NCBI GenBank assembly: GCA_963664705.1
Contig: OY761556.1
Span: 2,656,001 to 2,720,000 of the forward strand
Origin: Acidobacteriota bacterium
GTDB lineage: Bacteria > Acidobacteriota > UBA6911
Direction: 5' to 3'
DNA: 64,000 nucleotides
The first letter of the stretch is position 1, and each line of letters starts with the position of its first letter. The notes beneath the pieces were generated by a model. It saw only the letters and a program-made list of their open reading frames with translations, did not search any database and was not told the origin of the DNA. The translations under genes were made by a program, and so were the position numbers. Shown here one piece after another: positions 5,081 to 35,545 of the stretch.

Positions 5081-5190
5081 ATATCTGCCCCTTGTTTTGG
5101 CTTTGGGCCAATGAATGCCGATTACGTTACGCTCCGACCGGCTTCACTCTACTTTATCTCATCAGATTTCCAGAAAAAACAATTTTATAA

Positions 5191-5216
5191 ATGCATATTG
5201 CATGCATATAGCATAT
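5191..5216. promoter_or_regulatory. Candidate operator of the FCD-type GntR, between divergent operons
   Basis: ATGCATATTGCATGCATATAGCATAT has four GCAT units symmetric about TGCATGCA, in an AT-rich divergent intergenic region. Confidence 0.5.
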
Positions 5217-5300
5217 TATCTGCGTTGTACTTTACAATCGTATCAGGACGAAATGGGACCAAGCGCTCACAAAAGCGTCTGCGAGTACAGATATCGTCCT

Positions 5301-6464
5301 ATGATGAAGCCTGAAAATAATACGATGGCTGGGAACATGACAGATCCAATCCAGCGGTTAGCATGGCATTATCAAAATCCTTCAGCGGAAGCCATAGCCT
5401 TCGCCGGAAACGGCGGCCCGGTAGTTGGGGTCACCTCAAACACTGTCCCTTGGGAACTCATTCGAGCCGCTGGAGCTTTTCCCTATGTACTCAGCTCCGG
5501 AGACGCACGCCACCCCGATATCCCGAACTTCATGGAAGAGGGAGTTTTCGAGGAACGCATACGTGCAATATTTGGCGCGGCAATATCGGGAGCTCTGCGG
5601 CACCTCAGCCTTTTGCTTATTCCCCGAACCTCAGAGCAGGAATACAAGCTGTATCTCTACCTCAGAGAAGTCGCACGCCAGGAACCCGAGCGCTGCATTC
5701 CGCCCGTTTACCTGTACGACCTGCTCCACACAAATACCCCTGAATCTCAAGCCTATGGGCTGGAGCGCACGCAATGCCTGAAAACCCGGCTCGAAGAACT
5801 GACCGGCCAAACCATTAGCAGGGATGCATTGCGGTGCGCCATTGATGAATCCAACTCCGCCCGGAAAGCAATCCGCATGATAACGGCCCTGCGTCAACCC
5901 GAGCCAAAGATCTGTGGAGCCGAAGCGCTGGCACTGATCGGGCCGGCTTTTTTTATTAACAGGGATGAATATTCCCGTCTTGCTCATCAAGCAGCGGCGA
6001 TCATCGCACGCAGGGATCCATATACCGGGAAAAAGATACTGCTAACAGGAGCCTCGTTGAACCATCAAAGACTGCACCAAGCCCTGGAAGCGCACGGTGC
6101 GGTTGTGGTAGCGGAAGATGACTGGTGGGGAGCCCGGAGTGCCGGTGAAGATATCGATACATCCGATGATTTGATAAAAGCGGTATTTAGTAAATATCAT
6201 TTTGATACGCCGAGCCCCCGGCGGTTTCCATTTACCAGAGCGGATGAGTGGTTTCAGCAGGCAGTCGTTCATGGGATTGATGGCGTTGTTTTCTATTTAC
6301 CTCCCGAGGATTGTGTAGCGGGATGGGATTACCCCAGACGTCGACGCTATCTTGACGAACAAGGCATTCCTCATTTGCTCATCCGGGAAGACGCGAGATC
6401 ATTATCGGAAACAAGCCATGAGCAACTCGAACAATTTGTCAGCAGCATTGGAGTTGCCCGATAG
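5301..6464 (+). CDS. 2-hydroxyacyl-CoA dehydratase (HGD-D / BcrBC-like) subunit
   Basis: Motifs VPWELIRAAGAFP, LEELTGQTISRDALRCAI, KILLTG, GAVVVAED, IDGVVF. Start uncertain (ATG 5301, 5325 or 5337); the 5115 extension is rejected. Confidence 0.85.
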   Translation: MMKPENNTMAGNMTDPIQRLAWHYQNPSAEAIAFAGNGGPVVGVTSNTVPWELIRAAGAFPYVLSSGDARHPDIPNFMEEGVFEERIRAIFGAAISGALRHLSLLLIPRTSEQEYKLYLYLREVARQEPERCIPPVYLYDLLHTNTPESQAYGLERTQCLKTRLEELTGQTISRDALRCAIDESNSARKAIRMITALRQPEPKICGAEALALIGPAFFINRDEYSRLAHQAAAIIARRDPYTGKKILLTGASLNHQRLHQALEAHGAVVVAEDDWWGARSAGEDIDTSDDLIKAVFSKYHFDTPSPRRFPFTRADEWFQQAVVHGIDGVVFYLPPEDCVAGWDYPRRRRYLDEQGIPHLLIREDARSLSETSHEQLEQFVSSIGVAR

Positions 6465-6470
6465 GAGACT

Positions 6471-7751
6471 ATGGCGGAGAAACAACTCGATTGCACCCTG
6501 GCAGCCAGCGAACACCAGAAAGCCCGGTTTGCCCAGCTTCGGAAGGATGTATTCGAAAATCAACGGCCTTATGCCATTATCCAGGCAGACATGCCGTTTG
6601 AGCTCTTCCATGTAATGGATGTTCCGGTCGTAAGCAACCAGTGGTGGGCCGCGATCATTGCAGCCAAACGGCTTTCAGCTCATTACCTCGACATCCTCAA
6701 TGCTCACGGATTCCATGAAGGGTTGTGCCGGTACTGCAGCCTGGCAGCCGCATCCACGTTGGCTAATGACCCGGATCATGCCCCGTGGGGCGGGCTGCCC
6801 AAACCGGCCCTGCTCTGCGCAAGACTTACCTGCGACTGCCTCCAGAGGGTATTTGGCATTTGGGCCGATGCCTTTGGGTCTGAATTTGTGTTTATGGATA
6901 ATCCTGGTGCCACGGAGTTGCCGCCGCGCTGGTGGGAGCTCAGCCGTTATCGCTGGCGCGAATTGTTTGAGGAACACCGTCTTCAGCTCACGGTAGCACA
7001 GCTCAAATACGTTATCCGGACACTTGAAGGAATTACCGGCAGACAATTCAATGTCGACCATCTGCATAATCTGATGGAACAAGTGAACCGACAGGAAGAG
7101 TACTTCGAAGAAGCGTGCCAATTGATCAGCTCTGCGCCTAAAACACCTGTACGCATGCACGAGCAGGTAGCCAATGTCATGGCCGCACAGTGGGAACGGG
7201 GCAGCACTTGGGCTGTCGAGCATGCGCGCACGTTCAGGGATCAGATCAAAAATCGTGTACAGCAGGGCATTGCGGCATGTGCCGGAGAGCGCCTTCGACT
7301 TATGTGGGTGGGCGCAGGACTTTGGCATGACACGGACTTCTACACGGCTTTCGAGGAGGAGTTTGGCGCCGTTTTTGTATGGTCGATGTATTTAGCTTTT
7401 GGACCCGATGGCTATATTCGCTATGGCCTGGAGGATCCGCTACTTGCGCTCGCCAGCCGGACAGTCAGTATGAATGAGCAGCTGCACAACCCGCCCTGGG
7501 CCAATGAATGGATCATCCATCAAGCCCAGCTCAATAGGATTGATGCAGCGCTCGTGTTGACACCTCTGGGAACAAGGCCTGCAGCCACCGGCAATCGATT
7601 CATCGAACGCGCATTGGAAAAAGCGGGTATCCCGGTTCTCCCCATAGTTGCCGACATGGTGGATGCCCGTGACTGGGATCCTTTGGCGATGCGCCAGAAG
7701 GTTTCGGAATTTCTGACCCACCGCGTGTTGCAGGGCCGCACTATGCCATGA
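6471..7751 (+). CDS. 2-hydroxyacyl-CoA dehydratase (HGD-D / BcrBC-like) second subunit
   Basis: Motifs PFELFHVMDVP, GLCRYC, GGLPKP, LTCDC, ERLRLMWVG, GIPVLPIVADMVD; RBS AGGAG. Confidence 0.88.
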   Translation: MAEKQLDCTLAASEHQKARFAQLRKDVFENQRPYAIIQADMPFELFHVMDVPVVSNQWWAAIIAAKRLSAHYLDILNAHGFHEGLCRYCSLAAASTLANDPDHAPWGGLPKPALLCARLTCDCLQRVFGIWADAFGSEFVFMDNPGATELPPRWWELSRYRWRELFEEHRLQLTVAQLKYVIRTLEGITGRQFNVDHLHNLMEQVNRQEEYFEEACQLISSAPKTPVRMHEQVANVMAAQWERGSTWAVEHARTFRDQIKNRVQQGIAACAGERLRLMWVGAGLWHDTDFYTAFEEEFGAVFVWSMYLAFGPDGYIRYGLEDPLLALASRTVSMNEQLHNPPWANEWIIHQAQLNRIDAALVLTPLGTRPAATGNRFIERALEKAGIPVLPIVADMVDARDWDPLAMRQKVSEFLTHRVLQGRTMP

Positions 7752-7779: not shown

Positions 7780-9003
7780 ATGAAACAAGAGCAGAAAACG
7801 GACCGGGCCTGGATTATGCCATTCCTGGCAACCCTATTTGCGATGCTGACGCTTCAAATGTCCAGTTTGGGATTTGCGCCTCTATTGCCTGCAATCCAGA
7901 AGGAATTCTCGATGAGCTATACCCAAATCGGGCTCTTCACCGGAATGTACGGCCTGCTGGCGCTGGCACTGAGCGTCCCTGCCGGGATAGCGGCCAAGCA
8001 TTATGGAGAGAAGCGAGTTCTGATTACTGCCCTGCTTCTGGTAGGTTTGGGACTATTCATGCTGGGCAGGGCTAACGGGTTCTACGCCGCTTTCGCTTCG
8101 CGTGCTCTATGGATCGGCACATACCGATTTGCCTTCGTCTGTGTTCTGACCGCAATTGCCGTCACATCCCCACCGTCATGGAAGGGCGCCTCCATGGGAT
8201 TCCTCGGATCGGTTTCTTCCTTTGCTTCCGTAATCGGAGCTCCTTTTGGAAGCAAAATTGGTGAGAGTTTCGGATGGCGTGCTGGAATGACAGCCTACGG
8301 ATGTGCGGCGATTGCAGGCGCACTTGTTGTTTGGGCATTCTATCGTCACACTTCCGGCAAACCGGGGAATTTGCCAAACCACGGCACAGTGGTCTCCTCC
8401 TCAGGCGGACGAAGCGCCTTCAGAACACCTATTGTGTGGGCACTCGCGGTATTGGTGGGAATGATCGGAATGGCTTCCTACAGCGTAACCTTTTTTGTGC
8501 CGGCTGCCGCAGCTGCGGTCTTCAAAATGACTGCCGTTCAAACGTCTCTTGTGATTAGCACGGGGTACATCTGCGCAATATTTCTAAATCTGCTTCTCGG
8601 CTACCTCATGGATCACTGCAACCGATGGATCGTGCTGAGCACACTGGTTGCAATCCTGATACCGGCCTCACTGGCAATGGCCAGCGAGAATATTCTCGTT
8701 TTCCGAATCGCGACAACCATGGTGTTGGCCGGAAGCTTCGCCGCAACCAATCAGATTTACGGGGTCGCGGGAACATTGTTGAGCGGACGCGAAACAGGGA
8801 ACGTGATGGGCGTGGTTGGGCTTGGCGCCGGTATTTTCGGCTATGTCGGACCTCAAATGCTGGGAGTTCTGCGCGATCAGACGCAAGGATTCAGCGCCGG
8901 CTGGTACATGATGGCAGGCCTCGCACTTTTGACATTTATTGAATTATTGCTGCTTAAACAACACAGTGATAAACAGCACGCAGAGCCTGTTAACGCAGTT
9001 TGA
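7780..9003 (+). CDS. MFS transporter
   Basis: About 12 hydrophobic segments, motif-A-like GIAAKHYGEKR; RBS GAGG. Confidence 0.9.
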   Translation: MKQEQKTDRAWIMPFLATLFAMLTLQMSSLGFAPLLPAIQKEFSMSYTQIGLFTGMYGLLALALSVPAGIAAKHYGEKRVLITALLLVGLGLFMLGRANGFYAAFASRALWIGTYRFAFVCVLTAIAVTSPPSWKGASMGFLGSVSSFASVIGAPFGSKIGESFGWRAGMTAYGCAAIAGALVVWAFYRHTSGKPGNLPNHGTVVSSSGGRSAFRTPIVWALAVLVGMIGMASYSVTFFVPAAAAAVFKMTAVQTSLVISTGYICAIFLNLLLGYLMDHCNRWIVLSTLVAILIPASLAMASENILVFRIATTMVLAGSFAATNQIYGVAGTLLSGRETGNVMGVVGLGAGIFGYVGPQMLGVLRDQTQGFSAGWYMMAGLALLTFIELLLLKQHSDKQHAEPVNAV

Positions 9004-9028
9004 TGCAAAACCCGTAACCGGGAGATCA

Positions 9029-9970
9029 ATGAAGATGATGAACATAATTTCCGTTTATAAAAAGCGATTGCTGTTGGGTTCGCTTGCCGTTGTCGGGCTA
9101 TTCGCTGCCCTGTTAACAGCTCAAGCACCGCCACAGATAAAGTTCGGTTGCGCAATCAATGCGCAGGAGCAGGTTCGCGAATCGCAGGCGCTGGCAAAAA
9201 GTATCGCGTCTCCAGCGGATCCACAATGGCGGGCCAAAGGGGATCTTCACCGAAAATATGGTTTTGCCGCTGCCAATGCCGATATCCCCTATCGCCTATA
9301 TGTGCCCAGTTCCTGGGACGGCAAAGCACAACTGCCGCTAGTCGTGATGCTGCACGGTGCAGGATCGGATGAAAACTGGTATCTCGAGGCAAACGATAAG
9401 CTGCTTATTCGTTTGGCTGAGCAACATGGCTATATTTTGGCATCCCCATTGGGGTATACACGCATGGGCGCCTATGGAACCCCTTTGCGCCTCCCCGCGG
9501 TATTTGGAAATCCGGAGATAGCCGCAAAGCAGCGTGCCGGAGTTACGCCGGAACAAGAGCGAACGCTGGAACTCAGCGAAAAAGATGTGATCAACGTAAT
9601 TGAGATCGTGCTCCATGAATACCCGATAAAGCGCTCCGCCATGTTTCTTACCGGGCATTCGATGGGAAGCGGCGGCACATGGTACCTAGGCGCAAAATAT
9701 GCGCAGTACTGGGCGGCGATTGCTCCCATGTCGGGACCCTTTGTCGATGAAACCAATTATCCGTGGGACAACATACGCAAAATGCCCGTCTTTATGACGG
9801 AGGGAACGGGCGCCACTCCGTCGCTCGTCGGAAGCAAAGCGATGTTGGCCTGGATGAAGGAACGCGGTTTTAAGATTGAATATATGGAAGTGAATGCGGA
9901 TCATGGCGGCATGATCCCGCTGGTATTGCCCAGTGTATTCGATTTCTTTGATCGCTGCAAAGGCCAATAG
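9029..9970 (+). CDS. Exported alpha/beta hydrolase (PHB depolymerase / peptidase S9-like)
   Basis: Signal-like N-terminus, PLVVMLHGAG, GHSMGSGG elbow, ADHGG. Confidence 0.82.
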   Translation: MKMMNIISVYKKRLLLGSLAVVGLFAALLTAQAPPQIKFGCAINAQEQVRESQALAKSIASPADPQWRAKGDLHRKYGFAAANADIPYRLYVPSSWDGKAQLPLVVMLHGAGSDENWYLEANDKLLIRLAEQHGYILASPLGYTRMGAYGTPLRLPAVFGNPEIAAKQRAGVTPEQERTLELSEKDVINVIEIVLHEYPIKRSAMFLTGHSMGSGGTWYLGAKYAQYWAAIAPMSGPFVDETNYPWDNIRKMPVFMTEGTGATPSLVGSKAMLAWMKERGFKIEYMEVNADHGGMIPLVLPSVFDFFDRCKGQ

Positions 9971-10039
9971 TGTCACAAATGATGATGGACAATTTACGAA
10001 TTGTGTTCACTCGTAAATTGTCCATCATCATTCCGAAAT

Positions 10040-11614
10040 CTACTTCTTCGCCCGCGCTCTGCGATAGGAATAATACATATCGTAGGCCTTAAGCTTCTCC
10101 AGATTCGGTATCGGCTTCGCGCTTGTTTCTTTGTTAAAGAACAAAACCCGCTGATCCTTCTCCGTAAAGACCGGCCACTTTGGCAGGCCTGAACCATTCG
10201 GATCGCCAGTTCTGGCGAAATTGATCCAATAAGAACGAATCATATCGGATAAAGCAAGGTCCTCGGCATTGGGCGTCCCTCCACCGGAGCCTCCGAAATT
10301 TCCGAAAACATAGGAAACTTCCGCACCATGGTTTGCCCCGTCAGGAGAGGAAGGAGTTCGGTGGTCAAAGTAGTATACAAAAGCCCTGCCCTTCCCTTTT
10401 TGGGACTGCATCCGTGCCCAAGCCCATGTAGGCCAGGCAAAAGCGAATTCCCGGAAAACATCCGCCGCCGCGCGAGCCGCTTCTGCATCCGTGGCATGAG
10501 GATACGCAGCTAAAATAACATCGGCTCGATCACCATAGCCTGATCGAATCTGCTTCTCAAAAGCGGCCGGCGTGGTTGGTCCCCGCATGAAAAGTCCGCC
10601 TTCATTGGAATTTGTGCCGGCAAGGATAGGCGTGTCATTGAACCGGCCCTTTTCATAAAGCTCGTATGGATCTCCCGGCAAAACATATCCATCGGCAACG
10701 GGCCAGAAGCTCGCTCCACCGCCCATTCCGCCTCCGGCAGCTTTCTGAATCTGGTCCGCAGACAATGCCCTTGCGGCCTTAATGTCAGCAGCTCCAAGCT
10801 TTTTTAAAAAGCTCTCGCCGTTCGCTTCGCCGAGTTGCAGCGCTGCAACATTCTGGCCCGCCTCATTCGAAATCCTCGGCGGCGCAAACGACCCTCCACT
10901 TTCCGAAATTGCACGTTGAAACAGCCCCTTGGCTCCCGGCGCCGCCGAAAGCATACCGACGGCGATTCCGCCGGCTGACTCACCAAAAATTGTTACTCGG
11001 GATGGATCGCCACCAAACCGGGCAATGTTCGATTTCACCCATTTCAGGCTGGCAATCATATCCTGAATCCCATAGGCACCAGATCCTTTGTCGCTCTCGC
11101 GGCTGAGTTCCGGATGCGCCATGAAGCCAAAAACTCCCAACCGATATGCGACGCTTACCAGCACCACTCCTTTTTGGGCAAATTTCGTCCCATCAAACAT
11201 CGGTGTCCCCGTCATTCCACCGACAAACGCACCTCCGTGAATCCACACCATAACAGGCCGTTTTTCAGCGGCTGTTTTTGCTGCCGTCCACACGTTCAGG
11301 TACAAACAATCCTCACTTACATTTGGTGAAGATCCCATCATTTTGGACATACTCGCATCCTGCATGCAGCCAGCCGCATAGCTGTCAGCCTTCCGGATAC
11401 CGGTCCATGCTTTAGATGGCACAGGCGCCTTCCACCGCAGATCACCCACCGGCGGGGCAGCAAATGGGATCCCCTTAAACGAGGCCACCCCATCGGAGAC
11501 AACTCCCTGTAGCTGGCCACCTGTCGATTTGACATTTTGTATCTGTGAAAGCGCATACGGTACTCCCATAAGCATGACCGCCACAAATGCGCCAGCCATC
11601 AGACTCTTCCTCAT
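10040..11614 (-). CDS. Exported type-B carboxylesterase (COesterase)
   Basis: Motifs FKGIPFAAPPVGDLRW, SEDCLYLNVW, GESAGG, NSNEG, GANHGAE, YWINFARTGDPN. Confidence 0.95.
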   Translation of the reverse strand: MRKSLMAGAFVAVMLMGVPYALSQIQNVKSTGGQLQGVVSDGVASFKGIPFAAPPVGDLRWKAPVPSKAWTGIRKADSYAAGCMQDASMSKMMGSSPNVSEDCLYLNVWTAAKTAAEKRPVMVWIHGGAFVGGMTGTPMFDGTKFAQKGVVLVSVAYRLGVFGFMAHPELSRESDKGSGAYGIQDMIASLKWVKSNIARFGGDPSRVTIFGESAGGIAVGMLSAAPGAKGLFQRAISESGGSFAPPRISNEAGQNVAALQLGEANGESFLKKLGAADIKAARALSADQIQKAAGGGMGGGASFWPVADGYVLPGDPYELYEKGRFNDTPILAGTNSNEGGLFMRGPTTPAAFEKQIRSGYGDRADVILAAYPHATDAEAARAAADVFREFAFAWPTWAWARMQSQKGKGRAFVYYFDHRTPSSPDGANHGAEVSYVFGNFGGSGGGTPNAEDLALSDMIRSYWINFARTGDPNGSGLPKWPVFTEKDQRVLFFNKETSAKPIPNLEKLKAYDMYYSYRRARAKK

Positions 11615-11652
11615 GATTCTCCTCCAAATGGCAATTCTGTTTTAGTTATGCA

Positions 11653-11691
11653 TGTCACACTATTATGACATAATGTCATAACAGTGTGACG
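11653..11691. promoter_or_regulatory. Tandem pair of TGTCAYA-N4-TRTGACA operators (sites 1 and 2)
   Basis: TGTCACActatTATGACA (11653-11670) and TGTCATAacagTGTGACG (11674-11691), in a divergent promoter region. An extended -10, TGTTATAAT, lies at 11694-11702. Confidence 0.8.
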
Positions 11692-11845
11692 CATGTTATA
11701 ATAGCCTTTTCCAAATGAAGATAGCGTGCTTCCGGGCTAAATCACGTCCATGCACTGCATAATTGAGCTTAGATCCGGAAATACCGAGACAGCGGCGTAG
11801 CGTGCCCACATGGCAAATCGACTCCTTAAACCAGGTGACTGACCG

Positions 11846-13159
11846 ATGATATCCCGGAAAGAAATCTCGCAATATAAAAAAGAAAATCTCATTTTTAAAA
11901 AGCAGATCGAAGAGCAAACGGGAAAAACCATCCAGCAGCATTATGAGGAAAGGTCCAAACGAGTCCGGGACGTCATTGAGTTGAGAACTCCGGATCGAAT
12001 GCCCTTCATGGTATTGGTTGAACCGCACAGCTATGCGGGAATTTCCAAATCCGCCGCATTTTATGATCCGATCACGCTCAAGCGCACCATGAGAAAAATG
12101 GCAATGGACTTTCAGCCGGACATGAGTGAACCTGGCTTTCCATCCTGCGGCGCTGCCATGACGGAACTCGATGTGCAGAACTGCGTCTGGCCGGGCGGCC
12201 CCAAGCCGCCGGACTATGACTATCAGTTCATCGAAGGGGAATACATGAAGGAAGATGAGTACGACATGTTCCTGAATGACCCTTCCGGCTTCATGATCCG
12301 ACGCTATCTTCCGCGCATATACGCCGCCCTAAACCCATTGGCCAAACTCCCTCCTCTGGACAGTATGTTCATGGGGTTTGAAGCCTTGACCCCGTTGTTA
12401 TCCAGCTCCGAATTTCGAGGAATGGTCAAGCACATAGCCAAGGCAGGAAAGCACGTTCAGGAGTTCCGCAAGCTCGTCGGCGATGCTAATGAGGAATTGG
12501 CACAGTTGGGGTTTCCGCCATTTGCCCGCTTCGCACCAGGGGGCGTAGGGGGAGCACCCTTCGATACGCTTACAAGTTTCCTGCGCGGCATGAAAGGCTC
12601 CATGCTGGATATGTACCGTCGGCCCGACAAGCTGCTCCAGGCCTGCGAGAAGATTCTGGATCGGCGCATCGCTTGTGCTATTCCCGCAGATGCAACCTTA
12701 ATGGACTTTCCCCCAAGGGTAGGGCTGCCGCTCTGGAGAGGGGATCCGGTGTTTATGTCTGATGCCCAATTTAGGAAGTTTTACTGGCCCGGGCTCAAGA
12801 AGTCCCTGCAAACGCACGTGGACCTGGGCTACGTGCCGGTACCATTTTTCGAAGCACCATTCGGGGATAGACTTGAATGCCTTCTGGAGTTGCCGAAAGG
12901 AAAGATACTTGCTTCCATCGAAGCCGCAGATGCGGTTCGCGCCAAGGAAATTCTCGGCGGCCACACCAGCCTGTTGGTTCGTTGTCCGAATACCTGCAAG
13001 CTGTGGTCATTTGGTCAACTGGAATCCTTCATCAAGGATCTGATAAACAAATGCGGCAAAAACGGCGGACTCATCCTGGTTCTAAAGAAACCGGATTCAG
13101 TGGGAATTGATGAGATGCGGGCGCTGCTGAAATCCATGAATGAATATAGTCGGAATTAA
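11846..13159 (+). CDS. Uroporphyrinogen decarboxylase / MtaA-CmuA methyltransferase superfamily protein
   Basis: Motifs PDRMP, EGEYMKEDEYD, APFDTLTSFLRGMKGSMLDMYRRPDKL, FMSDAQFRKFYWP, CGKNGGLIL. Confidence 0.85.
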   Translation: MISRKEISQYKKENLIFKKQIEEQTGKTIQQHYEERSKRVRDVIELRTPDRMPFMVLVEPHSYAGISKSAAFYDPITLKRTMRKMAMDFQPDMSEPGFPSCGAAMTELDVQNCVWPGGPKPPDYDYQFIEGEYMKEDEYDMFLNDPSGFMIRRYLPRIYAALNPLAKLPPLDSMFMGFEALTPLLSSSEFRGMVKHIAKAGKHVQEFRKLVGDANEELAQLGFPPFARFAPGGVGGAPFDTLTSFLRGMKGSMLDMYRRPDKLLQACEKILDRRIACAIPADATLMDFPPRVGLPLWRGDPVFMSDAQFRKFYWPGLKKSLQTHVDLGYVPVPFFEAPFGDRLECLLELPKGKILASIEAADAVRAKEILGGHTSLLVRCPNTCKLWSFGQLESFIKDLINKCGKNGGLILVLKKPDSVGIDEMRALLKSMNEYSRN

Positions 13160-13387
13160 GGCCAACAAGGAAACTGGAAACCAGGCTATCCGTATACAGA
13201 GACCGTTGCAGATCGCCAGAAGCCGATTGGTTGGATCTGGAAGAATATAGACAAATTATGTCCATAGTCATGGCGATAGTATGTAATAGCAGGATGGCGG
13301 ATAGCGTATATACCCACATGCACCCATGATAGGATTTTCTCTGGCTTGGCCCCAAATTGTAATCAAATGCTCAAAGTGGAGGCAAAG

Positions 13388-14962
13388 ATGAGAAGGACAT
13401 TTCTCGCAATCTTTTTGACAATAGCGTTTGCGCAATTCTCCGTCTCCCAGATTCGCACGGCAAAGGTAACCGGCGGAAAAGTGCAGGGAGTGGTTTCTGA
13501 CAGTATTTCAGCATTCAAGGGAATCCCATTTGCCGCACCGCCGGTTGGAGATCTGCGCTGGAAAGCCCCCGCACCGCTGCTACCTTGGACAGGGGTCAAA
13601 AAGGCCGATGCTTTCGGGCCTGCCTGTATGCAAGCCTCCGGCGCAATGGGAAACACCGCACCGGTCAGCGAAGATTGCCTGTATCTGAATGTATGGACAC
13701 CCGCAAAAAAGCCTGGCGCAAAGATCCCGGTGATTGTTTGGATTTATGGAGGAGGCTTCAGCGGCGGATCAACCAGTACTTCCATGTATGACGGCATGGG
13801 CTTCGCCAAAAAGGGAGTAGTTCTGGTGAGTGTCGCGTATCGAGTCGGACCCTTCGGATTCATGGCCCATCCGGAACTGAGCCGTGAGAGCGGCAAGGGA
13901 TCGGGAAGCTACGGACTCGAGGATATGATTGCCGGGCTAAGATGGGTAAAGATGAATATTGCCCGGTTTGGAGGTGATCCCGGCAACGTGACAATTTTCG
14001 GGCACTCAGCCGGCGGCATGGCAGTCAACATGCTTGCAGCATCGCCTGTCACCAAGGGCCTTTTCCACCGCGCCATCTGCATGAGCGGAGGATCGTTTGC
14101 CCCGCTACAGTCTTCAAATGAAGGGGGAATCGATCTGGGAATTCCTACCCTAAAGCTGGCTGAATCAACCGGCGAAGCCTTTCTGAAGAGATTGGGCACT
14201 GCCGATATTAGGGCCGCGCGCGCGATCCCTGCGGAACAAATCCAAAAGAATATCGGGGGCGGAATGGGTGTCGGCGGATTCCGACCGCCTGCCGACGGAT
14301 ATGTTATTCCAAACGACCTGTACTCTATTTATCAGGCACGCCTTTTCAATGACACACCGGTTCTGGTGGGCAACACCTCGGATGAATTGGGATCATTCGG
14401 CAGTCGTGGACCGACCATTACGGCAGCAAGTTTTGAAGAGCAGATCAGGTCGCGATATGGGCCTCACGCCGATGCAATTTTGGGCGTATATCCGCATTCT
14501 AACGATGCTGAGGCTGCAAAGTCACAAAAAGGGCTTTCGCGCGAAAGCACGTTTTCCTGGAGCACGTGGACATGGGCTCGCATGCAAACAAAGCAAGGCA
14601 AGGGCAAGGCCTTTATTTACTATTATGATTTCCATGCGCCTAATGTAGACGGCTCGGGCCACGGCAGCGATGTCCCGTATGCATTTCAGACCCTGGGCGG
14701 GGGACGAGGCGGGGCCCCCAAACCGGAAGATATGAAGCTTTCCGAAGTAATCAGCTCCTATTGGGTCAATTTCGCAAAGACAGGCGATCCCAATGGACCC
14801 GGCCTCCCCAAGTGGCCTGCTTTCGCGGAGAGCAATCAGCAGGCGATGGTGTTCGATGCAACATCCGGAGCCAGACCCGTTCCCAATTTGGACAAGCTGA
14901 AAGCATTTGACTCCTATATTACATGGCGAAGAGAAGAAGAGAAGAAAAACGCCGGAAAATAA
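13388..14962 (+). CDS. Exported type-B carboxylesterase; close paralogue of 10040-11614
   Basis: Motifs SEDCLYLNVW, GHSAGG, NTSDE, GSGHGSD; RBS GGAGG before ATG 13388. Confidence 0.95.
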   Translation: MRRTFLAIFLTIAFAQFSVSQIRTAKVTGGKVQGVVSDSISAFKGIPFAAPPVGDLRWKAPAPLLPWTGVKKADAFGPACMQASGAMGNTAPVSEDCLYLNVWTPAKKPGAKIPVIVWIYGGGFSGGSTSTSMYDGMGFAKKGVVLVSVAYRVGPFGFMAHPELSRESGKGSGSYGLEDMIAGLRWVKMNIARFGGDPGNVTIFGHSAGGMAVNMLAASPVTKGLFHRAICMSGGSFAPLQSSNEGGIDLGIPTLKLAESTGEAFLKRLGTADIRAARAIPAEQIQKNIGGGMGVGGFRPPADGYVIPNDLYSIYQARLFNDTPVLVGNTSDELGSFGSRGPTITAASFEEQIRSRYGPHADAILGVYPHSNDAEAAKSQKGLSRESTFSWSTWTWARMQTKQGKGKAFIYYYDFHAPNVDGSGHGSDVPYAFQTLGGGRGGAPKPEDMKLSEVISSYWVNFAKTGDPNGPGLPKWPAFAESNQQAMVFDATSGARPVPNLDKLKAFDSYITWRREEEKKNAGK

Positions 14963-15020
14963 TTATGCCTGCTACCGGAAGCGCGCCGTCTCAGCGGCAT
15001 CAGCGTTGTGGGAACGGTAA

Positions 15021-16448
<1,428 letters not shown>

Positions 16449-16455
16449 TTCAATA

Positions 16456-16569
16456 GTCAGTGGTTGGTGGTTGGTGGTTGGTGGTTAGTAGCCAGTAGCC
16501 AGCAGTCGAGAGCCAGGAATCTGCAGGTAGTAATACCATGGACTCCTGGCTTCTGATTTCTGGCTTCTG
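16456..16569. repeat. Heptamer tandem repeat tract with a closing inverted repeat
   Basis: Nine 7-mers: GTCAGTG, GTTGGTG x3, GTTAGTA, GCCAGTA, GCCAGCA, GTCGAGA, GCCAGGA. Complementary 7-mers follow (ACTCCTG, GCTTCTG, ATTTCTG, GCTTCTG). Stem AGCCAGGA/TCCTGGCT. Confidence 0.8.
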
Positions 16570-16588
16570 CATTATGGAGGATTCAATT

Positions 16589-18307
16589 ATGCGAAAATTT
16601 TGGACGGCGCTTTCCATTGGAATTCTCGCCGTCCTGGCAGCCCAGGATTTATCCCGGGCTCAAGGGACTGCGGATTCCAAACTCAAGGCGCCTGATGCTC
16701 AATTTGAGGTTCTCAGCCCCTGGGCGGATGTTGATCCCATCCCGCTCCGCGGGATTTCCCCGAGAATTCAGACGCTCGCGGGAAAGAAGGTCGGATTGTT
16801 CGTCAATCCGAAGCGGGCGGCCAAGCCGATTTCCGAATCAATCGATAAAAGACTGAAGGCCATGTATCCCGATATCCAGACAATCGTCTTCAATTCTACC
16901 GAGGCGAATGTCAATGAAATCGAGACAAAGAACAAGGACAAATTCACGGCATGGGCAAAAGGACTTGACGCTGCCATTGCCGTCGTCGGTGATTGAGGGT
17001 CCTGCACAAAGTACCTCGCCTATAACACAATAGCGATCGAGGACTTTGGCAAGCCAGTCGTGTTACTGGCCAATAAGGGTTTTGTTACCGATGCTCAATC
17101 AGCTGCATCCAGCAAAGGCATGCCCGGCATCAGGATTGTAGGGGAATCTGTTGCCTGTGAATCCACTGTCAAATCTGAGATAGAAGAAGGCATAGCGGCA
17201 GCCATGAAAGATGTCGTGGAAGCTTTGACCAAGCCGCTGACCGCTGAAGAAAAAACTCCGAAACCACAAACGGGTAAAACTCCAAGGGTAGCATTCAAAG
17301 GAAGCCTTCAAGATGTAAACCGGTTTTACTACAGCAAGGGGTGGACCGACGGCCTTCCGATCATTCCGCCTACCGCGGAAGCTGTCGCAGAAATGCTAAC
17401 CGGAACGGATCTACCACCTGATCATATCGTGGCAACGATCATTCCGAGAAAGGGAAAGGCCACGGTCGAAAAGATTGCGATTAATGCAGTCATGGCAGGT
17501 GCTCTTCCGACTTACATGCCCGTCTTGATTGCTGCGGTACAGTCATTCGCCGATCCAAAAACGAGATTTGATACGTTTGAGGTGAGTACCGGTTCGTGGG
17601 CACCCTTCATTGCCATCAATGGCCGAATCCGAAACGACATCAACATCAATTGCAGTTCAGGCGCATTGAGTCCGGGGAATATCGCAAACTCAGCGCTTGG
17701 CCGGGCCGTTGGTTTGATCGTAAAGAACATCGGCGGAGCAAGAAAGGCTGTCGAGGATATGGGGGTCATCGGCAATCCGGGCAAATACAGCCTCGTAATC
17801 GGTGAAGATGAGGAATCCAGCCCCTGGGAATCCCTCAGTGTCGAGCGCGGCTACAAGAAAGAGGACAATACTCTGACTGTGTTCTTCCCCAACACTTTCA
17901 TCCAGACCGTCCCAACCGGAACAAACGCGCAAGGGATTCTGGATACGCTGGCCGGGATGACCACCAGCACTATGTCCAGCATCATTCTTATTCCTTCATG
18001 GGCCAGGGTGTTATCGAGTGAAGGATGGACCAAACAGAAGGTCAAGGAATACCTGGCGGCTCACGGGACTTCTATCCGCTCGAGTGTCGCTGGTTTTGGC
18101 AGCGATACGACTCTTCCGAAAATCCAGACAGACAGCCTTATGCTGCTGGTTGCCGGCGGGCCGGGCTCGTTTATCGCGGTGCTGAGAAGTGCGGGACCCG
18201 GGTTTTTCGAAAATGCCCTGGTCACGAAGAAGATTGAGTTGCCGAAGAATTGGGACAAGCTGGTAGCAAAGTACAAAGACATCAAACCGCATTACGAGAA
18301 GTACTAG
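16589..18307 (+). CDS. UGSC-family selenoprotein (Sec at TGA 16994-16996) with signal peptide, fused to a GWTDGLPIIPPT domain; 572 aa
   Basis: ORFs 16538-16996 and 17060-18307 are in the same frame. Reading through the TGA gives AIAVVGD-U-GSCTKYLAYNTIAIEDFGKPVVLLANKGF with no other stop. RBS GGAGG before ATG 16589; no obvious RBS before 17060. Confidence 0.88.
17003..17051 (+). promoter_or_regulatory. Candidate SECIS hairpin downstream of the UGA
   Basis: Nested pairs TGC/GCA, CAAAGT/ACTTTG, CCTCG/CGAGG and CTAT/ATAG close the loop AACACA (17024-17029). Confidence 0.6.
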
Positions 18308-18315
18308 AAGAGAAA

Positions 18316-18354
18316 GCCACGAATTTCACGGATAAGTTTCGTGAAATTCGTGGC
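18316..18354. terminator. Perfect 15-bp inverted repeat between convergent genes (probable bidirectional terminator)
   Basis: GCCACGAATTTCACG-N9-CGTGAAATTCGTGGC. Confidence 0.75.
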
Positions 18355-18366
18355 GGCTTTCCGATG

Positions 18367-20061
18367 TTAGGCCAACAGGATCTTGCGCACTTCACCTTCC
18401 GGATCGTCGACCATCCTACAGTTATTATCAAACACCATTGTCTGACACCGTGTCGGATCGAACGGTTCCCACGTCATCCCGGGCTGGCTGGGATTTCCGG
18501 TCCGGGCAAAATTCGCCCAGGCGGTGGACATCTTTTTTGCCAATGCCTGCGCTTCCGGACCGTTTCCGGTTCCCTGCTTGCACCGTTTTGTGTTATCAAA
18601 GCAAAAAGCCAATTCCGCCGTATGCCACGCGCCCGCATCTTCCAGCATTGGCGATTGCCATGAGAAATACCATAAAAATACTGGGGCACCCTTCAGCTGG
18701 TGTTTCATGGTAGCCATGCGAATGGCGTTGTTGCATATATTGAAAGTGTTCAAACCGCCGCCATTGCACATATACGACAGCTTACGAACGCTTTTATCCG
18801 GATGTACCTTTTTCATCGCCGCGACCAGTGCCGTAGCTTTGGCCTCGCCATAGCTCTTCGTCAGTGTGGCCATCCACTCAGCCTCCGTGGGCCGGGAGAG
18901 CATTGAATTCCCCTCCTCGCTCACCGAACCGATAAGCATAGGAATGTTCTTTGAGATTTCGGGGGCCGCATCGAAAAAGGACTTCATAGTAATGACGCGG
19001 CCATCCGCCGTTGGTCCCCATCCCACGCGCGGCTTTCCCGTTCCAGGCGGAGGAATCGGCCCGTAAACGCCCATTGGCGGGTTCATTTTGGCAGCGACAG
19101 CTTCGCCCAGCGCATTCAATTTAGCCCAATCCATTTTTTGGAGCGTGGCCATGTCGCGAACGCCTAATTCCGCGAAAACCCGTTTTGCATACTCGCTGGA
19201 TTGCTCAGCACTGGGAGCATCCCCGCCCCCACCGGACTGTGCGGATGCGCGATGAATCAAGCCTGCGGCCGAAGGCATGCCCAGAAGTGTCGTCACCTTG
19301 GAACCTCCGCCCGACTGGCCATAAATCATAATACAATCCGGATCGCCGCCGAAATTGGCGATGTTGTCCCGAACCCAGCGAAGCGCTGCCACAAGATCGA
19401 TCATCCCAACGTTCGACGATTCGGCATATGCCGTCCCGCCGATCGAGGACACATCTAGAAATCCGAGGATATTGAGGCGGTGATTGACCGTGACGGATAC
19501 GACGTCATGATGTCGGGCCATCTGCGCCCCGTCCTGGGAGGCAAGTTCGTACGCCGAGCCGAAAGAAAAACCGCCCCCATGGATATAGAACATCACCGGG
19601 CGCTTTCCCGTCAAACCGGGCGTCCAAATATTGACCTTCAGCATGTCCTCACTTTGCCAGCCATCCGTCCACTGCTGCAGAAACGTTTGCTCGCTGGACC
19701 AGTTATGCGGGTGCTGTGGACAATTAGGGCCATAGGTCAAAGCAGGGTATTCGCCATCCCACGGCGTCGGCGGTTTGGCCGGAAGCCACCTGTTTTCGCC
19801 TCCGGTATTTGCGCCATAGGGGACTCCCTTGAATGTCAGAATGCCATCCTCCACGTAGCCTCGCACCTTCCCGCATTGCGTATTTGCCACAGCGCTTCGC
19901 GGTGTGCTGCAGCTTGCCGCCGCCTGCGGCACCGCCGTATTTGCTCCGTTGCCTGAACCGCACGCAGCTGCAGCAAGCGCCGCTGCGCCCGCGGAAGCCG
20001 ATAGGATCAGGGCCTGTCGCCGGTTGAGTTTATTGCTGTCATTCGCATTCGATCTAGGCAT
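18367..20061 (-). CDS. Type-B carboxylesterase with Tat signal and possible lipobox
   Basis: Leader NRRQAL...AAAACG; motifs FKGVPYGA, SEDMLKVNIW, GQSGGG, SEEG, AWHTAE. Confidence 0.93.
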   Translation of the reverse strand: MPRSNANDSNKLNRRQALILSASAGAAALAAAACGSGNGANTAVPQAAASCSTPRSAVANTQCGKVRGYVEDGILTFKGVPYGANTGGENRWLPAKPPTPWDGEYPALTYGPNCPQHPHNWSSEQTFLQQWTDGWQSEDMLKVNIWTPGLTGKRPVMFYIHGGGFSFGSAYELASQDGAQMARHHDVVSVTVNHRLNILGFLDVSSIGGTAYAESSNVGMIDLVAALRWVRDNIANFGGDPDCIMIYGQSGGGSKVTTLLGMPSAAGLIHRASAQSGGGGDAPSAEQSSEYAKRVFAELGVRDMATLQKMDWAKLNALGEAVAAKMNPPMGVYGPIPPPGTGKPRVGWGPTADGRVITMKSFFDAAPEISKNIPMLIGSVSEEGNSMLSRPTEAEWMATLTKSYGEAKATALVAAMKKVHPDKSVRKLSYMCNGGGLNTFNICNNAIRMATMKHQLKGAPVFLWYFSWQSPMLEDAGAWHTAELAFCFDNTKRCKQGTGNGPEAQALAKKMSTAWANFARTGNPSQPGMTWEPFDPTRCQTMVFDNNCRMVDDPEGEVRKILLA

Positions 20062-21115: not shown

Positions 21116-24100
21116 CTAAAAACTATATTTCAGCCCGAACTGGATAATGCGCGGGTTAACCGTGGTTGCCGTAATGGTTCCAAAAGAAGCCGCGCTGTTT
21201 CTCTGAACCGCAGGATTTGCAAATTGCGCATGGTTGAAGGTATTGTAAAATTCGGTTCGGAACTGCAGCGTATGCCCTTCCCTGATTTTTGTTATCTTGT
21301 TCAGCGTGATGTCCCAGTTAAATTGGCCTGGTCCCCGCAAAATACCAACGCCGGAATTTCCAAAGCCGGTTCCATTGCCGTAGATACCTCCCGTAGGTGC
21401 TGCACAGAAAGCGCTCTTGTTGATATATCCGGTGCCGCCGCTGTTCCCGCCCAACCGATCCTGGATCGACCCTGATGTCTTAATGGACTCATGCGTCGCA
21501 TCGGCGCACATTTGAGCTCTGGCGGCAGTAACGCCATAGATCGTACCGGCAGCACTGTCGCTAATCGACACCGCTGTACCGCTTTGAATGGTGGTAATCC
21601 CCGCCACGCTCCAGCCCATAAGAAGCTTGCCCGACAGTCCCTGGTGCGCACCCAACGGAAGCTCATACTGGTAATTAAGGATGAAGCGCTGTGGACGGTC
21701 AAAATCCGTTACACCGTATTGCTGCTTAGGGTCTGCGGGATCGTTGCTGTTTTGCGCATAATACGATCCAGTGCCGACCTCGTCACTCAGGCTTTTGCTC
21801 CATGTATAGGATCCCTGAAATGAAAATCCGTAGGAAAAGCGTTTGCGCAGAGTGACCTGAAGGCTGTTGTAATTGGAATGCGCATTGAACTCTGTTCCTT
21901 TCAGTCCTTCGGTCTGATAACCGATAAAAGGAACCCTCAGGCCTCGATTCGCCAACGTATTCGCCGTTTGGCCGTTGATCGGGTTTGTCGCGGTGGCCAG
22001 GCGGGCTGCATTGATGTTGTGATATTCGTTGATCAAATGAGTCCCGGTTGATCCGACATAGCCTGCCTCCAACACCCAATTTCGGGCAAACTCATACCCA
22101 AGCATGAGTGTGTACTGGCGCATCAAGGGTGTGGCGACCTTTGTAGCCAGAAATTGAGCGGAAATATTGGAGGTAGTGCCGGTACAGTTGGTTCCATCCG
22201 GCAGGCATGTCAAATTGCTCCATCGGGATTGCCAGATTCCCGGAGATACATCGCGGAAAGGAGTCTGCAGCGTTTGGGTATTCCCCGAGCTGTAGTCTCC
22301 TCTGATCGCGTACGGTGATCCCTCCTGAACGCTCTGAATGAAGCTGCCGGCCCAGACTCGGTCGTAAAACAAACCAAATCCGCCGCGCAGAACCAGATTC
22401 CCTTTGGATGTCATCTGCCATGCGAATCCAATACGGGGACCAAAGTTGGTGTACGGAGGATGACCATCAATTGAGTGGCTGTTGCTCGCCCTCCGGACGC
22501 CATCGGGCAAAGGTTCATTGTCTTTGGAATTATTATCAGGAACAACCATCCCGACCAACCCTGGTCCAGATGTGGTCGGCCCGGTGGGCGGTATCGGCAC
22601 AGTTGCGATCAGGTCAGGCCAGGTATTTGTCAAATTGCCATACCTGTCACTGAAAACTCCCATATATTCCCACCGCAGCCCGAGGTTCAGAGTAAGCCTC
22701 TGGCTGAACTTCCAGTCATCCTGAATATAGCTGCCTATATTGTTCATTCGATAGCCATGAACAATGGTCCCCTTCGGGCCTCTTCCCTCTGAGCAGGCCG
22801 TACATGCAAACAGGTTTCCGGCCCTTCCCACAAGGAAATCATTGAAGCTGAGAACCGAAATATATCCGCGGGTAAATCCCGGGTTGGCAAAGTAATGAAC
22901 TCTTTCCCATTCAAATCCTGCACGCAGGGTGTGCTTGTTTCTGGACCATGCGATCTGGTCCGCTGCTTGAAAATGCTCCGATATGCTGAGCGCGGGGCTG
23001 AAGCTGTTAAACAACTGTGGCCCGCCGGTAATTGCAAATTGCGGCGGATCCGTCATATCGGCGACGGCCGGCGTCATCCCCAGTGCCTGCATGGTGGCGC
23101 CGGGAATAGTGTCTTCTAAAGCCTCACCATGGTTTCGCTGATACGATGCCCGGGCTTCGTTTGTGAAGGCATTGCTGACATACGTATTGAGCTTCATCAC
23201 TGCGTAGTTGTTTGTATAGTAATACTCCTTGAGCTGCCCCGGCAGTTTCCCGCCAAGCGTAATCTTCTGGGGATCACGAGTATAAAAATATCTCGTTTGC
23301 AGCGTGTACTTCGGATTGATAATGAAGTCGGCGTTGACGAGTACCTGGTCCCCCGAATAGCGCGACGGATCGCTGAATGCAATCGTCCTGTAACCGGCAG
23401 TACCGGACCCCGGAACATAATAGTTACCATTGGCAAGCTTTAGCTGCAGTATTTTGAGCGCCACCGGATTAACATTGGATCCGTCGCAGGCCAGCTTCGT
23501 CGGCCCGCTGGTCTGGAATGAACAGTTTGCAGCCGCCAGTGCCGCCGGAAATCCTGAGGCAGTACGATCTCCATCCGGAATCGGAGGCAGGTTAAAGCTA
23601 GCCAGCCCCTGGCTCGAAAGACCGTTTTTTTGTCTCGAACCCTGATAGCTTCCGAACAGGAAGAAGTGGTCCTTTACAACCGGGCCACCTAGAACAAAGC
23701 CAAACTGGTTCTGATTCAAAATCGGTTTCTTCGTTGCGGAGTTCGGATTATCCCGATTGTAAAAGAATGGATTGGCATTGAGCGATGTGTTACGTAGAAA
23801 TTCAAAAGCCGCACCATGGAGCCTGTTGCCTCCCGACTTTGTTACAACATTAACGTTTCCGCCCGGGTTCCGACCATAGCTTGCATCAAATGTCGAAGTC
23901 TGAACCTTAAATTCCTGGATGGCGTCCGGGCTGGGAACCCCTATCCCCGCTCCAGTGCTCTGATCGCCGGCGCTCCCATTCATACCGATGTTGACAACAC
24001 CTACCCCATCCATCTGATAGTTATTCTGCGCTGGAGTCGATCCATTAACGCTCGTGTACTGAGTCCCCTTTCCCATCACGGTCGCGTTGTTGACGCTGGC

Positions 24101-24616
24101 GGCAACACCGGTAGAGAGATCCAGAATTTGCGTGTAATTGCGACTTGTTAACGGTAAATCCGTGATGGTTTTGCTATCAACAAGGGTTCCCATTGTTGAG
24201 TTTGCCGTCTGAAGTATTTCGCTCTCAGACTGAACAACGAAGGTTTCGTTTGGCGCGCCAACCTCGAGCGTGCAGCTCAGAACAGTAATCTCGGTAACAT
24301 TAATTGTAATGGAGGGAAACTCGGAACTCTTGAACCCAGCCATGTCGATCTTGACCTTATACTTGCCAGGCTGCAAAAGGGAGAATCGAAAGCCACCACT
24401 CTCGCTTGTAGTTGCCGATTGGGACTTTCCAGTTGCCAGATTTGTGATACTCACCTGGGCCTTTACCACAACTGCCTTGGATGGATCGGTAACGGTCCCC
24501 GATAATGCCCCCGTGCTTGCTGTTTGTGCGTTTACGGACGGAGCGACTGCCACTGCAATCAGTAACATTGCAAGAGGAAAAACTAAAAACACTTGCAGTA
24601 CCCTACATTTGTTCAT
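21116..24616 (-). CDS. TonB-dependent outer-membrane receptor (Oar-like, carboxypeptidase-regulatory-like N-domain)
   Basis: Motifs ALSGTVTDPS, DLPLTSRNY, PSPDAIQEFKVQTS, YIQDDWK, NFGPRIGFAW; C-terminal PRIIQFGLKYSF. Confidence 0.95.
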   Translation of the reverse strand: MNKCRVLQVFLVFPLAMLLIAVAVAPSVNAQTASTGALSGTVTDPSKAVVVKAQVSITNLATGKSQSATTSESGGFRFSLLQPGKYKVKIDMAGFKSSEFPSITINVTEITVLSCTLEVGAPNETFVVQSESEILQTANSTMGTLVDSKTITDLPLTSRNYTQILDLSTGVAASVNNATVMGKGTQYTSVNGSTPAQNNYQMDGVGVVNIGMNGSAGDQSTGAGIGVPSPDAIQEFKVQTSTFDASYGRNPGGNVNVVTKSGGNRLHGAAFEFLRNTSLNANPFFYNRDNPNSATKKPILNQNQFGFVLGGPVVKDHFFLFGSYQGSRQKNGLSSQGLASFNLPPIPDGDRTASGFPAALAAANCSFQTSGPTKLACDGSNVNPVALKILQLKLANGNYYVPGSGTAGYRTIAFSDPSRYSGDQVLVNADFIINPKYTLQTRYFYTRDPQKITLGGKLPGQLKEYYYTNNYAVMKLNTYVSNAFTNEARASYQRNHGEALEDTIPGATMQALGMTPAVADMTDPPQFAITGGPQLFNSFSPALSISEHFQAADQIAWSRNKHTLRAGFEWERVHYFANPGFTRGYISVLSFNDFLVGRAGNLFACTACSEGRGPKGTIVHGYRMNNIGSYIQDDWKFSQRLTLNLGLRWEYMGVFSDRYGNLTNTWPDLIATVPIPPTGPTTSGPGLVGMVVPDNNSKDNEPLPDGVRRASNSHSIDGHPPYTNFGPRIGFAWQMTSKGNLVLRGGFGLFYDRVWAGSFIQSVQEGSPYAIRGDYSSGNTQTLQTPFRDVSPGIWQSRWSNLTCLPDGTNCTGTTSNISAQFLATKVATPLMRQYTLMLGYEFARNWVLEAGYVGSTGTHLINEYHNINAARLATATNPINGQTANTLANRGLRVPFIGYQTEGLKGTEFNAHSNYNSLQVTLRKRFSYGFSFQGSYTWSKSLSDEVGTGSYYAQNSNDPADPKQQYGVTDFDRPQRFILNYQYELPLGAHQGLSGKLLMGWSVAGITTIQSGTAVSISDSAAGTIYGVTAARAQMCADATHESIKTSGSIQDRLGGNSGGTGYINKSAFCAAPTGGIYGNGTGFGNSGVGILRGPGQFNWDITLNKITKIREGHTLQFRTEFYNTFNHAQFANPAVQRNSAASFGTITATTVNPRIIQFGLKYSF

Positions 24617-35399: not shown

Positions 35400-35545
35400 C
35401 AGATCGTGTTAGAGTCGTGATAACAGAAGCATCCTGGACGTAATCGGCTGAAAACATGAGCGACCTGGCGACACCGGCGTTTTTTCCGTCCACGGTCAAC
35501 GCTGTCCCCAAAAAGCATGCTGGCGGCGAAGAGAGGCAATTCCAC

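Follow-up and report, generated by a model that had tools for sequence, protein, structure and literature searches.

The window analysed here, a 64,000-nucleotide stretch of an Acidobacteriota genome (GTDB lineage Bacteria; Acidobacteriota; UBA6911; contig OY761556.1), contains at 16589–18307 a 572-codon gene interrupted only once, by the stop TGA 16994–16996, which is codon 136 in the context AIAVVGD-U-GSCTKY. Translation table 11 presents this frame as two halves, the open reading frames (ORFs) 16538–16996 (152 aa) and 17060–18307 (415 aa, GTG start). An earlier note on this DNA had pointed out that the two ORFs are co-framed and split only by the TGA and 21 sense codons, and that read-through gives VVGD-U-GSC with a UxxC motif; both observations hold. 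A GGAGGA is found 7–12 nt 5' of ATG 16589, and neither a promoter nor a clear terminator was found around the gene. The residues GWTDGLPIIPPT occupy positions 251–262 of the read-through product. The features discussed below are listed in Table 1.

Table 1. Features of the gene and related loci, in window positions unless stated otherwise (Sec, selenocysteine; SECIS, selenocysteine insertion sequence)
Feature	Position	Strand	Basis
Whole gene, 572 codons, UGA136 very likely read as Sec	16589..18307	+	frame, orthologues and paralogues
Shine-Dalgarno-like GGAGGA before ATG 16589	16576..16582	+	sequence
Predicted signal peptide of the Sec (secretory) type, residues 1–24, putative cut after S-R-A	16589..16660	+	hydrophobicity heuristic
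UGSC domain, about residues 39–214, alternating beta/alpha fold, evidently homologous to the GrdB/PrdB Sec domain	16703..17230	+	Pfam, model, HHalign
In-frame TGA, very likely Sec136 of U136-G-S-C139	16994..16996	+	conservation, Cys homologues
Hairpin 1, arms 17003–17018 and 17038–17051, variable apex; putative spacer looping out ~45 nt	17003..17051	+	covariation, folding
Hairpin 2, GCCAGT-CGTGTT-ACTGGC; probable displaced SECIS	17053..17070	+	covariation, folding
Partner domain 'Unknown_1', residues 225–572	17261..18304	+	alignment, model, 2008 paper
Further likely Sec-codon loci (genome positions)	4401710(-), 4666877(-), 4399622(-), 4261972(-), 2412510(+), 2046822(+)
DUF4352-like ORFs	L023:3406-3969, L033:3427-3996, L039:5751-6362, L069:5751-6362, L069:11594-12124, L071:5739-6353

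Reading of the in-frame UGA

The genome, a single contig of 6.89 Mb, contains the machinery that the earlier note had proposed to look for: selA, selB, selD and tRNA-Sec are each found twice over the cut-offs, and one of the two selD genes carries a TGA of its own. A profile search of this genome revealed 35 paralogous loci (36 rows, two of them being one ORF), 31 of which have TGA at the UGA136 column; all 31 read U-x-x-C, the U and the second Cys co-occurring in every Sec paralogue (31/31). Among the orthologues listed (full-length, at least 57% identity, from 24 genomes of the genus), each has exactly one TGA and none ends there. TAA or TAG never occupies the column in the listed paralogues and orthologues. 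The best 120 database homologues cover no more than 67–75% of the query; such truncation is what splitting of the gene at the UGA by gene callers would produce. Moreover, the column is spanned by 75 of the best 150 representatives (50% clustering), and 35 of these have Cys (30 as CxxC, many as D-C-G-S-C). The named relatives are metagenome-assembled genomes (MAGs) of Acidobacteriota (one labelled UBA6911), together with one Desulfatiglans bin and one deltaproteobacterial bin.

The conserved TGA, the Cys homologues, the Sec machinery and the truncated database homologues together indicate that UGA136 is very likely read as Sec. Two observations weigh against the selenol-enzyme reading given below: Sec is absent from the remaining 4 of the 35 paralogues, with no Cys at the column in any of them, and neither Cys nor Sec is found in 40 of the 75 column-spanning representatives, indicating that the selenol cannot be needed by all members. 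A nonsense pseudogene, or two independent genes, would agree with the separate listing of the halves in databases, but this explanation is effectively refuted: 31 paralogues and dozens of orthologues share the TGA, with no TAA or TAG in its place in those listed, the RNA structure is conserved and the Sec machinery is present. In contigs from the read runs X2 and X4, which may themselves be source data, all letters of the TGA are unchanged.

The clade of the present gene, predicted to be exported and carrying the displaced hairpin (see below), also occurs in bins labelled Desulfatiglans and Deltaproteobacteria/Myxococcota (L082:1251-2981, L084:3164-4870), through transfer or mis-binning.

Two conserved hairpins 3' of the UGA

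We aligned 59 distinct sequences of the D-U-G-S/G-C-T-K clade. Hairpin 1 extends from +7 to +55 relative to the UGA, with 14 pairs, 95.9% of cells paired and two pairs with two-sided change. Directly behind it, hairpin 2 has 7 pairs in the clade (98.1% paired) and a loop that reads CGUGNU in 55 of the 59 sequences. Three of its pairs change on both sides, namely 83-102 (CG 27, AU 22, GC 4), 84-101 (GC 55, AU 3) and a third (UA 57, CG 1). The covariation score was reached by none of 500 shuffles, and 96.6% of cells are paired against 27–44% in slid registers, these being controls that do not remove relatedness. A protein tree computed without the hairpin region (quick maximum-likelihood, two short rows kept, careful search unfinished) places the clade as monophyletic relative to 10 sister sequences; on it, AU at pair 83-102 arises in at least five places and GC in one, and AU at pair 84-101 arises in three. 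In several of the compensatory changes, an amino-acid replacement in one arm is matched by a synonymous change in the other. Furthermore, synonymous identity among 34 orthologues averages 0.79 over residues 137–160 compared to 0.47 elsewhere, and the best of 449 windows starts at residue 137 (Z 1.96, against 0.36 for the best non-overlapping window). The conserved hairpin structure 3' of the UGA is real and lies far beyond chance. A search of Rfam gave no match.

The loop of hairpin 2 begins 62 nt 3' of the UGA, whereas the bacterial SECIS (bSECIS) model places 16–37 nt between the UGA and the apical loop (PMC13188914). The displaced +62 hairpin is present in 57 of the 59 clade sequences and a canonical hairpin in 2; for the five clade paralogues of this genome the counts are 5/5 and 0/5, and no qualifying canonical-window hairpin is found in the gene itself. 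Outside the clade the pattern is reversed: 20 of the 26 other Sec paralogues have a canonical G-loop hairpin (+15 to +23, -4 kcal/mol or better) and none of the 26 has one at +55 to +70. Further UGSC genes outside the clade are canonical in 20 of 20 cases, and in four of these the loop, at +20, is likewise CGUGU; the genome's selD, formate-dehydrogenase-like and thioredoxin-like Sec candidates also have canonical hairpins. As a background, ordinary TGA stops are followed by canonical-position hairpins in 14% of cases and by displaced-position hairpins in 10%. A search within the UGSC family found the displaced pattern in 27 of the 29 other genus genomes, compared to 0 of 21 others of the taxonomic family. 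When the first 9–12 nt are held open as by a ribosome, both hairpins of this gene form with pairing probabilities of 0.96–0.99, the energy of hairpin 2 being -7.7 kcal/mol.

These patterns suggest that hairpin 2 is probably a displaced SECIS bound by SelB. It would direct Sec insertion at UGA136, hairpin 1 looping out the spacer and thereby bringing hairpin 2 near the ribosome. The earlier note had rightly seen a hairpin behind the UGA, but the structure it described is probably the spacer, the likely SECIS being the second hairpin at 17053–17070.

Several points count against a displaced SECIS. In this gene an A-C mismatch stands in place of the outer pair of hairpin 2, so that 6 pairs remain, and the pairing probability of the hairpin is 0.43 without the ribosome-like constraint, compared to 0.96 with it. 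An alternative helix sequestering the UGA fits the alignment equally, although it is not energetically favoured, and 6 of the 26 other Sec paralogues lack a good canonical hairpin by a simple test. Moreover, the loop contains the GTG that gene callers use as the start of the 415-aa ORF, and translation might initiate internally at this codon; the third base never varies, and the sole exception to GTG is TTG, another start codon.

The last point leads to a different assignment, in which hairpin 1 is a non-canonical SECIS and hairpin 2 controls an internal GTG start yielding a Sec-independent, cytoplasmic partner-domain protein. Hairpin 1 does start 7–11 nt after the UGA, at the canonical stem distance, GTG or TTG stands at the loop position in 59 of 59 sequences, and partner-domain-only genes and Sec-less members exist. 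Nevertheless, we regard this assignment as unlikely: the apex of hairpin 1 is variable, without a conserved G in a small loop, and the loop sequence of hairpin 2 is that of the canonical hairpin in the sister clade. In addition, the only Shine-Dalgarno-like GAGGA lies 16 nt from the GTG and is paired within hairpin 1, and 17060 falls inside strand 4 of the N-terminal domain rather than at a domain boundary.

A second, compact Sec cluster is found at genome positions 3072623-3078309 (L073), with selB, selA, tRNA-Sec and a TGA-free selD that carries a fused CMD domain; it is 34–48% identical to the dispersed first set and adjoins corrinoid/URO-D/RACo genes. Two full-length selB matches were found in 0 of 24 other genomes of the genus. 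That a second SelB is required for the displaced element was considered and rejected, as most genus genomes having this element carry one full-length selB. Further likely Sec codons of the genome (Table 1) belong to a formate-dehydrogenase-like gene, two rhodanese genes (C-T-U), a thioredoxin-like gene (U-P-Y-C), a gene for an exported C-G-U protein and selD. In the two rhodanese genes the canonical hairpins are weak and a G-loop hairpin stands at +79, which could be a further displaced element. A codon-bias screen of the whole selenoproteome returned 715 candidates and was too noisy to count. Short-read assemblies break at 16993–17062 because the paralogues are nearly identical over the hairpin-coding stretch.

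Domains, predicted export and proposed mechanism

The assignment to the UGSC family made in the earlier note is right: Pfam PF24696 matches residues 49–214, across the TGA, with 83 bits (cut-off 25), and it matches 26 of 26 members of set A1. NCBIfam NF041046 scores 67.6 bits, below its equivalog cut-off of 125, the protein being a diverged long form and not the stand-alone equivalog. A model of the mature protein (predicted local distance difference test, pLDDT, 85.7; predicted template modelling score, pTM, 0.86) shows an N-terminal domain of five strands alternating with helices, with the U-x-x-C after strand 3. Its best structural matches are generic Rossmann-/flavodoxin-like chains, with Z up to 10.9 (root-mean-square deviation, rmsd, 4.5; 139 aligned). 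No thioredoxin-fold chain was found in the top 50 structural matches of the full model, a list outside which that fold may still occur.

To place this domain, its profile was aligned by HHalign with 22 PF07355 proteins from Acidobacteriota genomes, giving 94% probability and an E value of 1.5e-7 over 97 columns, with Sec on Sec, whereas 20 reversed or shuffled controls reached at most 0.64%. Two Cys homologues (P0161, P0212) match the glycine/sarcosine reductase selenoprotein B models (E 5e-5 to 7e-7), and a GrdB-like protein matches NF041046 weakly. On the evidence of these profile comparisons, the UGSC Sec domain is a distant homologue of GrdB/PrdB. Direct searches gave less: PF07355 has no match in the UGSC read-through protein or in the genome, PF09338 (the GrdE/PrdA-type partner) has none in the genome, and sequence searches of the PDB with the read-through protein, A1, A4 or a PrdB-like protein returned nothing significant. 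Of 121 Acidobacteriota genomes, 29 encode PrdB-like U/CxxC proteins (L137-L160), but a GrdE/PrdA-type partner was found in 1 of 201; these PrdB-like proteins appear to be orphans as to such a partner.

The second half of the protein is the partner domain of the 'UGSC/Unknown_1' fusion described in 2008 by Zhang and Gladyshev (PMC2398784, Fig. S1A). Its near-invariant residues are D254, P261, T262, M302-A-G304, S/T333, N367, R372, N380, E406 and W413; E406 is conserved in 126 of 127 sequences, R372 in 121 and N367 in 118, and position 333 is S in 89, T in 27 and G in 4. Although the model of this domain is confident (pLDDT 94, pTM 0.93), comparison with 48,161 chains gave none above Z 3.3, and Foldseek gave none at E 0.001 or better; these misses are no evidence for a new fold, nor for a different one. 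Elsewhere in the Acidobacteriota the partner domain is encoded by a gene of its own, which immediately precedes a stand-alone UGSC gene, often with an N-terminal AhpC/TSA-redoxin CxxC domain (Pfam match in 4 of 5 ORFs tested), which brings a dithiol, the partner domain and the selenol into one unit. Tandem partner-domain proteins of ~710 aa without UGSC were also observed (P0150, P0158, P0185, P0195, P0202, P0257).

One finding on this domain speaks against a close parallel with the reductases. Compared by HHalign with one GrdE, it gave 2.6%, and that on the N-terminal domain, a single sequence being weak ground for judging remote homology; with no homology to GrdE/PrdA detected, no pyruvoyl chemistry is supported. 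A pyruvoyl cofactor derived from S/T333, which lay in a low-confidence loop of a first model, was dropped for these reasons: the loop is confident in a deeper model, Thr and Gly are common at the position and no homology to GrdE was observed.

The N-terminus has the n/h/c pattern of a signal peptide by a hydrophobicity heuristic (MRKFWTALSIGILAVLAAQDLSRA), as the earlier note had remarked, and export through the general secretory pathway is, on this basis, quite likely. The note's further remark that such export would be unusual does not stand for this family and genus, since 27 of the 35 paralogues score as signal peptides and one more has a twin-arginine motif. All 57 clade members with an intact start are also positive; this heuristic is permissive, as 35% of the long ORFs of the genome are positive too, which counts against the prediction, and its results are suggestive only. 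Stand-alone UGSC proteins of other Acidobacteriota start at the first strand, without a leader. Long Cys-type (C-G-L-C) homologues (P0161, P0162, P0212) have signal peptides and LPXTG or copper-amine-oxidase-N anchors, indicating that export of the UGSC family recurs elsewhere.

On balance we favour the reading in which the locus is one Sec gene with a displaced SECIS, whose exported product would be a selenol redox enzyme with a substrate-binding partner domain. Such a two-domain enzyme would work like a one-chain GrdB/PrdB-type reductase. The partner domain would bind and activate a small substrate; the Sec136 selenolate would attack the bound substrate, cleaving a carbon-heteroatom or S-X bond; and Cys139 would resolve the adduct, leaving a selenenylsulfide for re-reduction by a thioredoxin-type dithiol, such as a TlpA-like periplasmic protein fed by DsbD. 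This scheme, drawn by analogy, is put forward tentatively. In PrdB, the Sec attacks the alpha carbon of partner-bound D-proline (PMC11229817). In the present genome 9 AhpC-TSA domains score over the cut-off, and a single DsbD-type gene is present.

The term 'thiol/selenol oxidoreductase' used in the earlier note is plausible but generic, and the evidence favours a GrdB/PrdB-related domain. A generic periplasmic thiol-disulfide/peroxide oxidoreductase, whose UxxC exchanges with disulfides or peroxides while the second domain is a mere scaffold, would fit the interchange of UxxC and CxxC among homologues, the redoxin fusion of the two-gene form and the grouping of UGSC with thioredoxin-like proteins in the literature (PMC2398784, PMC13188914). 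This appears improbable given the homology of the N-terminal domain to GrdB/PrdB, the position of the motif after the third strand in a domain whose best structural matches are flavodoxin-/Rossmann-like, and a partner domain conserved like an active site (E406, R372, N367). Moreover, 35 paralogues at 24–83% identity exceed a housekeeping need.

Alternatively, the partner domain could catalyse a non-redox reaction of the lyase/hydratase type, with Sec/Cys as a dispensable metal ligand or auxiliary nucleophile. Intact members with neither Sec nor Cys exist, as do tandem partner-domain-only proteins of ~710 aa, and class I fumarate hydratases give the best fold matches, themselves weak (Z 3.3, rmsd 5.3, 176 aligned; Foldseek E 5e-3). 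These matches are, however, within noise, U and the second Cys are paired in 31 of 31 Sec paralogues and the redoxin fusion points to redox turnover, which makes a non-redox enzyme rather a poor candidate.

Expansion in the genus and comparison with known systems

A query with the second domain gave 9–41 matches in each of 29 genomes of the genus (for two of them, at least the figure given), compared to 0–2 in 21 genomes of 10 other genera of the family; elsewhere in the phylum, matches were found in 14 of 199 genomes outside the family. This genus-wide expansion and the displaced hairpin were both missed in the earlier note. Two paralogues (genome positions 3995147-3996931 and 6758057-6759841) are 99.5% identical, suggesting that the expansion is still going on. 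The diverged paralogues of this genome could form a substrate-specificity array for the reductive scavenging of organic compounds in an anaerobic Acidobacteriota genus.

The esterases upstream, whose co-orientation the earlier note had pointed out, show only local synteny: among the named orthologue loci closest to this gene, at least 3 (L074, L076, L095) keep it, and a carboxylesterase lies within 4 kb of 2 of the 35 paralogues, compared to 0.8 expected. A functional link to these esterases is not supported. Tungsten aldehyde oxidoreductases (6/35) and TonB receptors (11/35) also neighbour the paralogues, in counts that are biased by the choice of these families from among the neighbours themselves. 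Next to 8 of the UGSC paralogues, though not to the gene at 16589–18307, lies a small exported DUF4352-like protein; 8 of its 9 copies in the genome are at these sites, and it is likely a partner of those 8 paralogues.

Esterases make the window itself an island: it contains exported carboxylesterases and PF00756 esterases (8939–20061, 35456–37159, 41572–43005, 58275–59894), with a TonB-dependent receptor (21119–24616), a 2-hydroxyacyl-CoA dehydratase pair (5115–7748), a family III CoA-transferase and a glycyl-radical enzyme (37193–39679). Short intergenic repeats flank the gene, upstream at 16460–16500 (GGTTGGT/AGCCAGT runs) and downstream at 18316–18354, the latter being an imperfect palindrome that recurs elsewhere in the genome.

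PMC2398784, PMC1976440 and PMC13188914 already report the UGSC family, the UGSC/Unknown_1 fusion and the splitting of genes at the UGA. New here are the probable displaced SECIS in the clade, the GrdB/PrdB relationship and the genus-specific expansion. Neither a distant bacterial SECIS nor UGSC-GrdB/PrdB homology nor this expansion was the subject of any paper found in literature searches, to which subscription papers were mostly inaccessible, and the main text of the preprint on the UBA6911 family (10.1101/2021.04.09.439258) does not mention selenium. The 31 Sec genes that the UGSC family alone contributes to this genome are all hidden from annotation. UGSC is reportedly among the most abundant selenoproteins of the Global Ocean Sampling (GOS) survey. 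The record whole selenoproteomes contain 57–63 selenoproteins (PMC13188914), and the MAG with 63 could bear on any record for expansion.

If hairpin 2 is indeed a displaced SECIS, it breaks the 16–37 nt rule underlying SECIS-based gene finding; it would be a concrete member of the other SECIS classes that must exist according to PMC13188914, which says only this and that some genes fail the bSECIS model. It would also loosen a limit on selenoprotein engineering, as the codons directly following Sec would no longer have to fold into the SECIS. Sister clades of one family, with canonical elements in one and displaced elements in the other but the same loop, provide a natural control pair, and the link to GrdB/PrdB is a first chemical lead for the UGSC family. 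A wider reading joins a second SECIS class (~60 nt from the UGA, with a spacer hairpin restoring the geometry and the same SelB) to the view that UGSC, one of the commonest orphan selenoprotein families, is a pyruvoyl-free branch of the glycine/proline-reductase selenoenzymes, here exported, with a partner domain of undescribed fold and ~30 selenoenzymes per genome, probably the largest single-family bacterial selenoprotein expansion; as a whole it is speculative and rather unlikely to hold in every part.

Compared with the canonical bSECIS, hairpin 2 is likewise a small coding-region stem-loop, with a 6-nt loop, CGTGTT, in which G and then U fall in the first positions; it differs by its distance from the UGA and by the conserved 14-pair spacer hairpin before it. 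The protein shares with the NF041046/PF24696 UGSC family the U-G-S-C motif and a Pfam score over the cut-off.

The known GrdB/PrdB-type enzymes are cytoplasmic multi-subunit complexes. The UGSC protein shares with GrdB/GrdF/GrdH (TIGR01917/TIGR01918) and PrdB (TIGR04483; PF07355) the strand-UxxC-helix-(L/I)ExxGxP-strand core, with Sec on Sec, and, as in those systems, a dedicated partner is encoded upstream. In contrast, its partner domain is not detectably related to GrdE/PrdA, and the protein is fused and predicted to be exported.

As regards the fusion of 2008, the Unknown_1 alignment (A.N.VMAGC.P.Y.P.L.A...NG) in PMC2398784 identifies the same partner domain, whereas the signal peptide and the clade-specific, probable displaced SECIS set the present gene apart; that paper supposed a thioredoxin-like fold for UGSC, while the present data point to a relative of GrdB/PrdB. 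Finally, Olavius had one UGSC copy (PMC1976440), compared to 31 Sec copies in the present genome.

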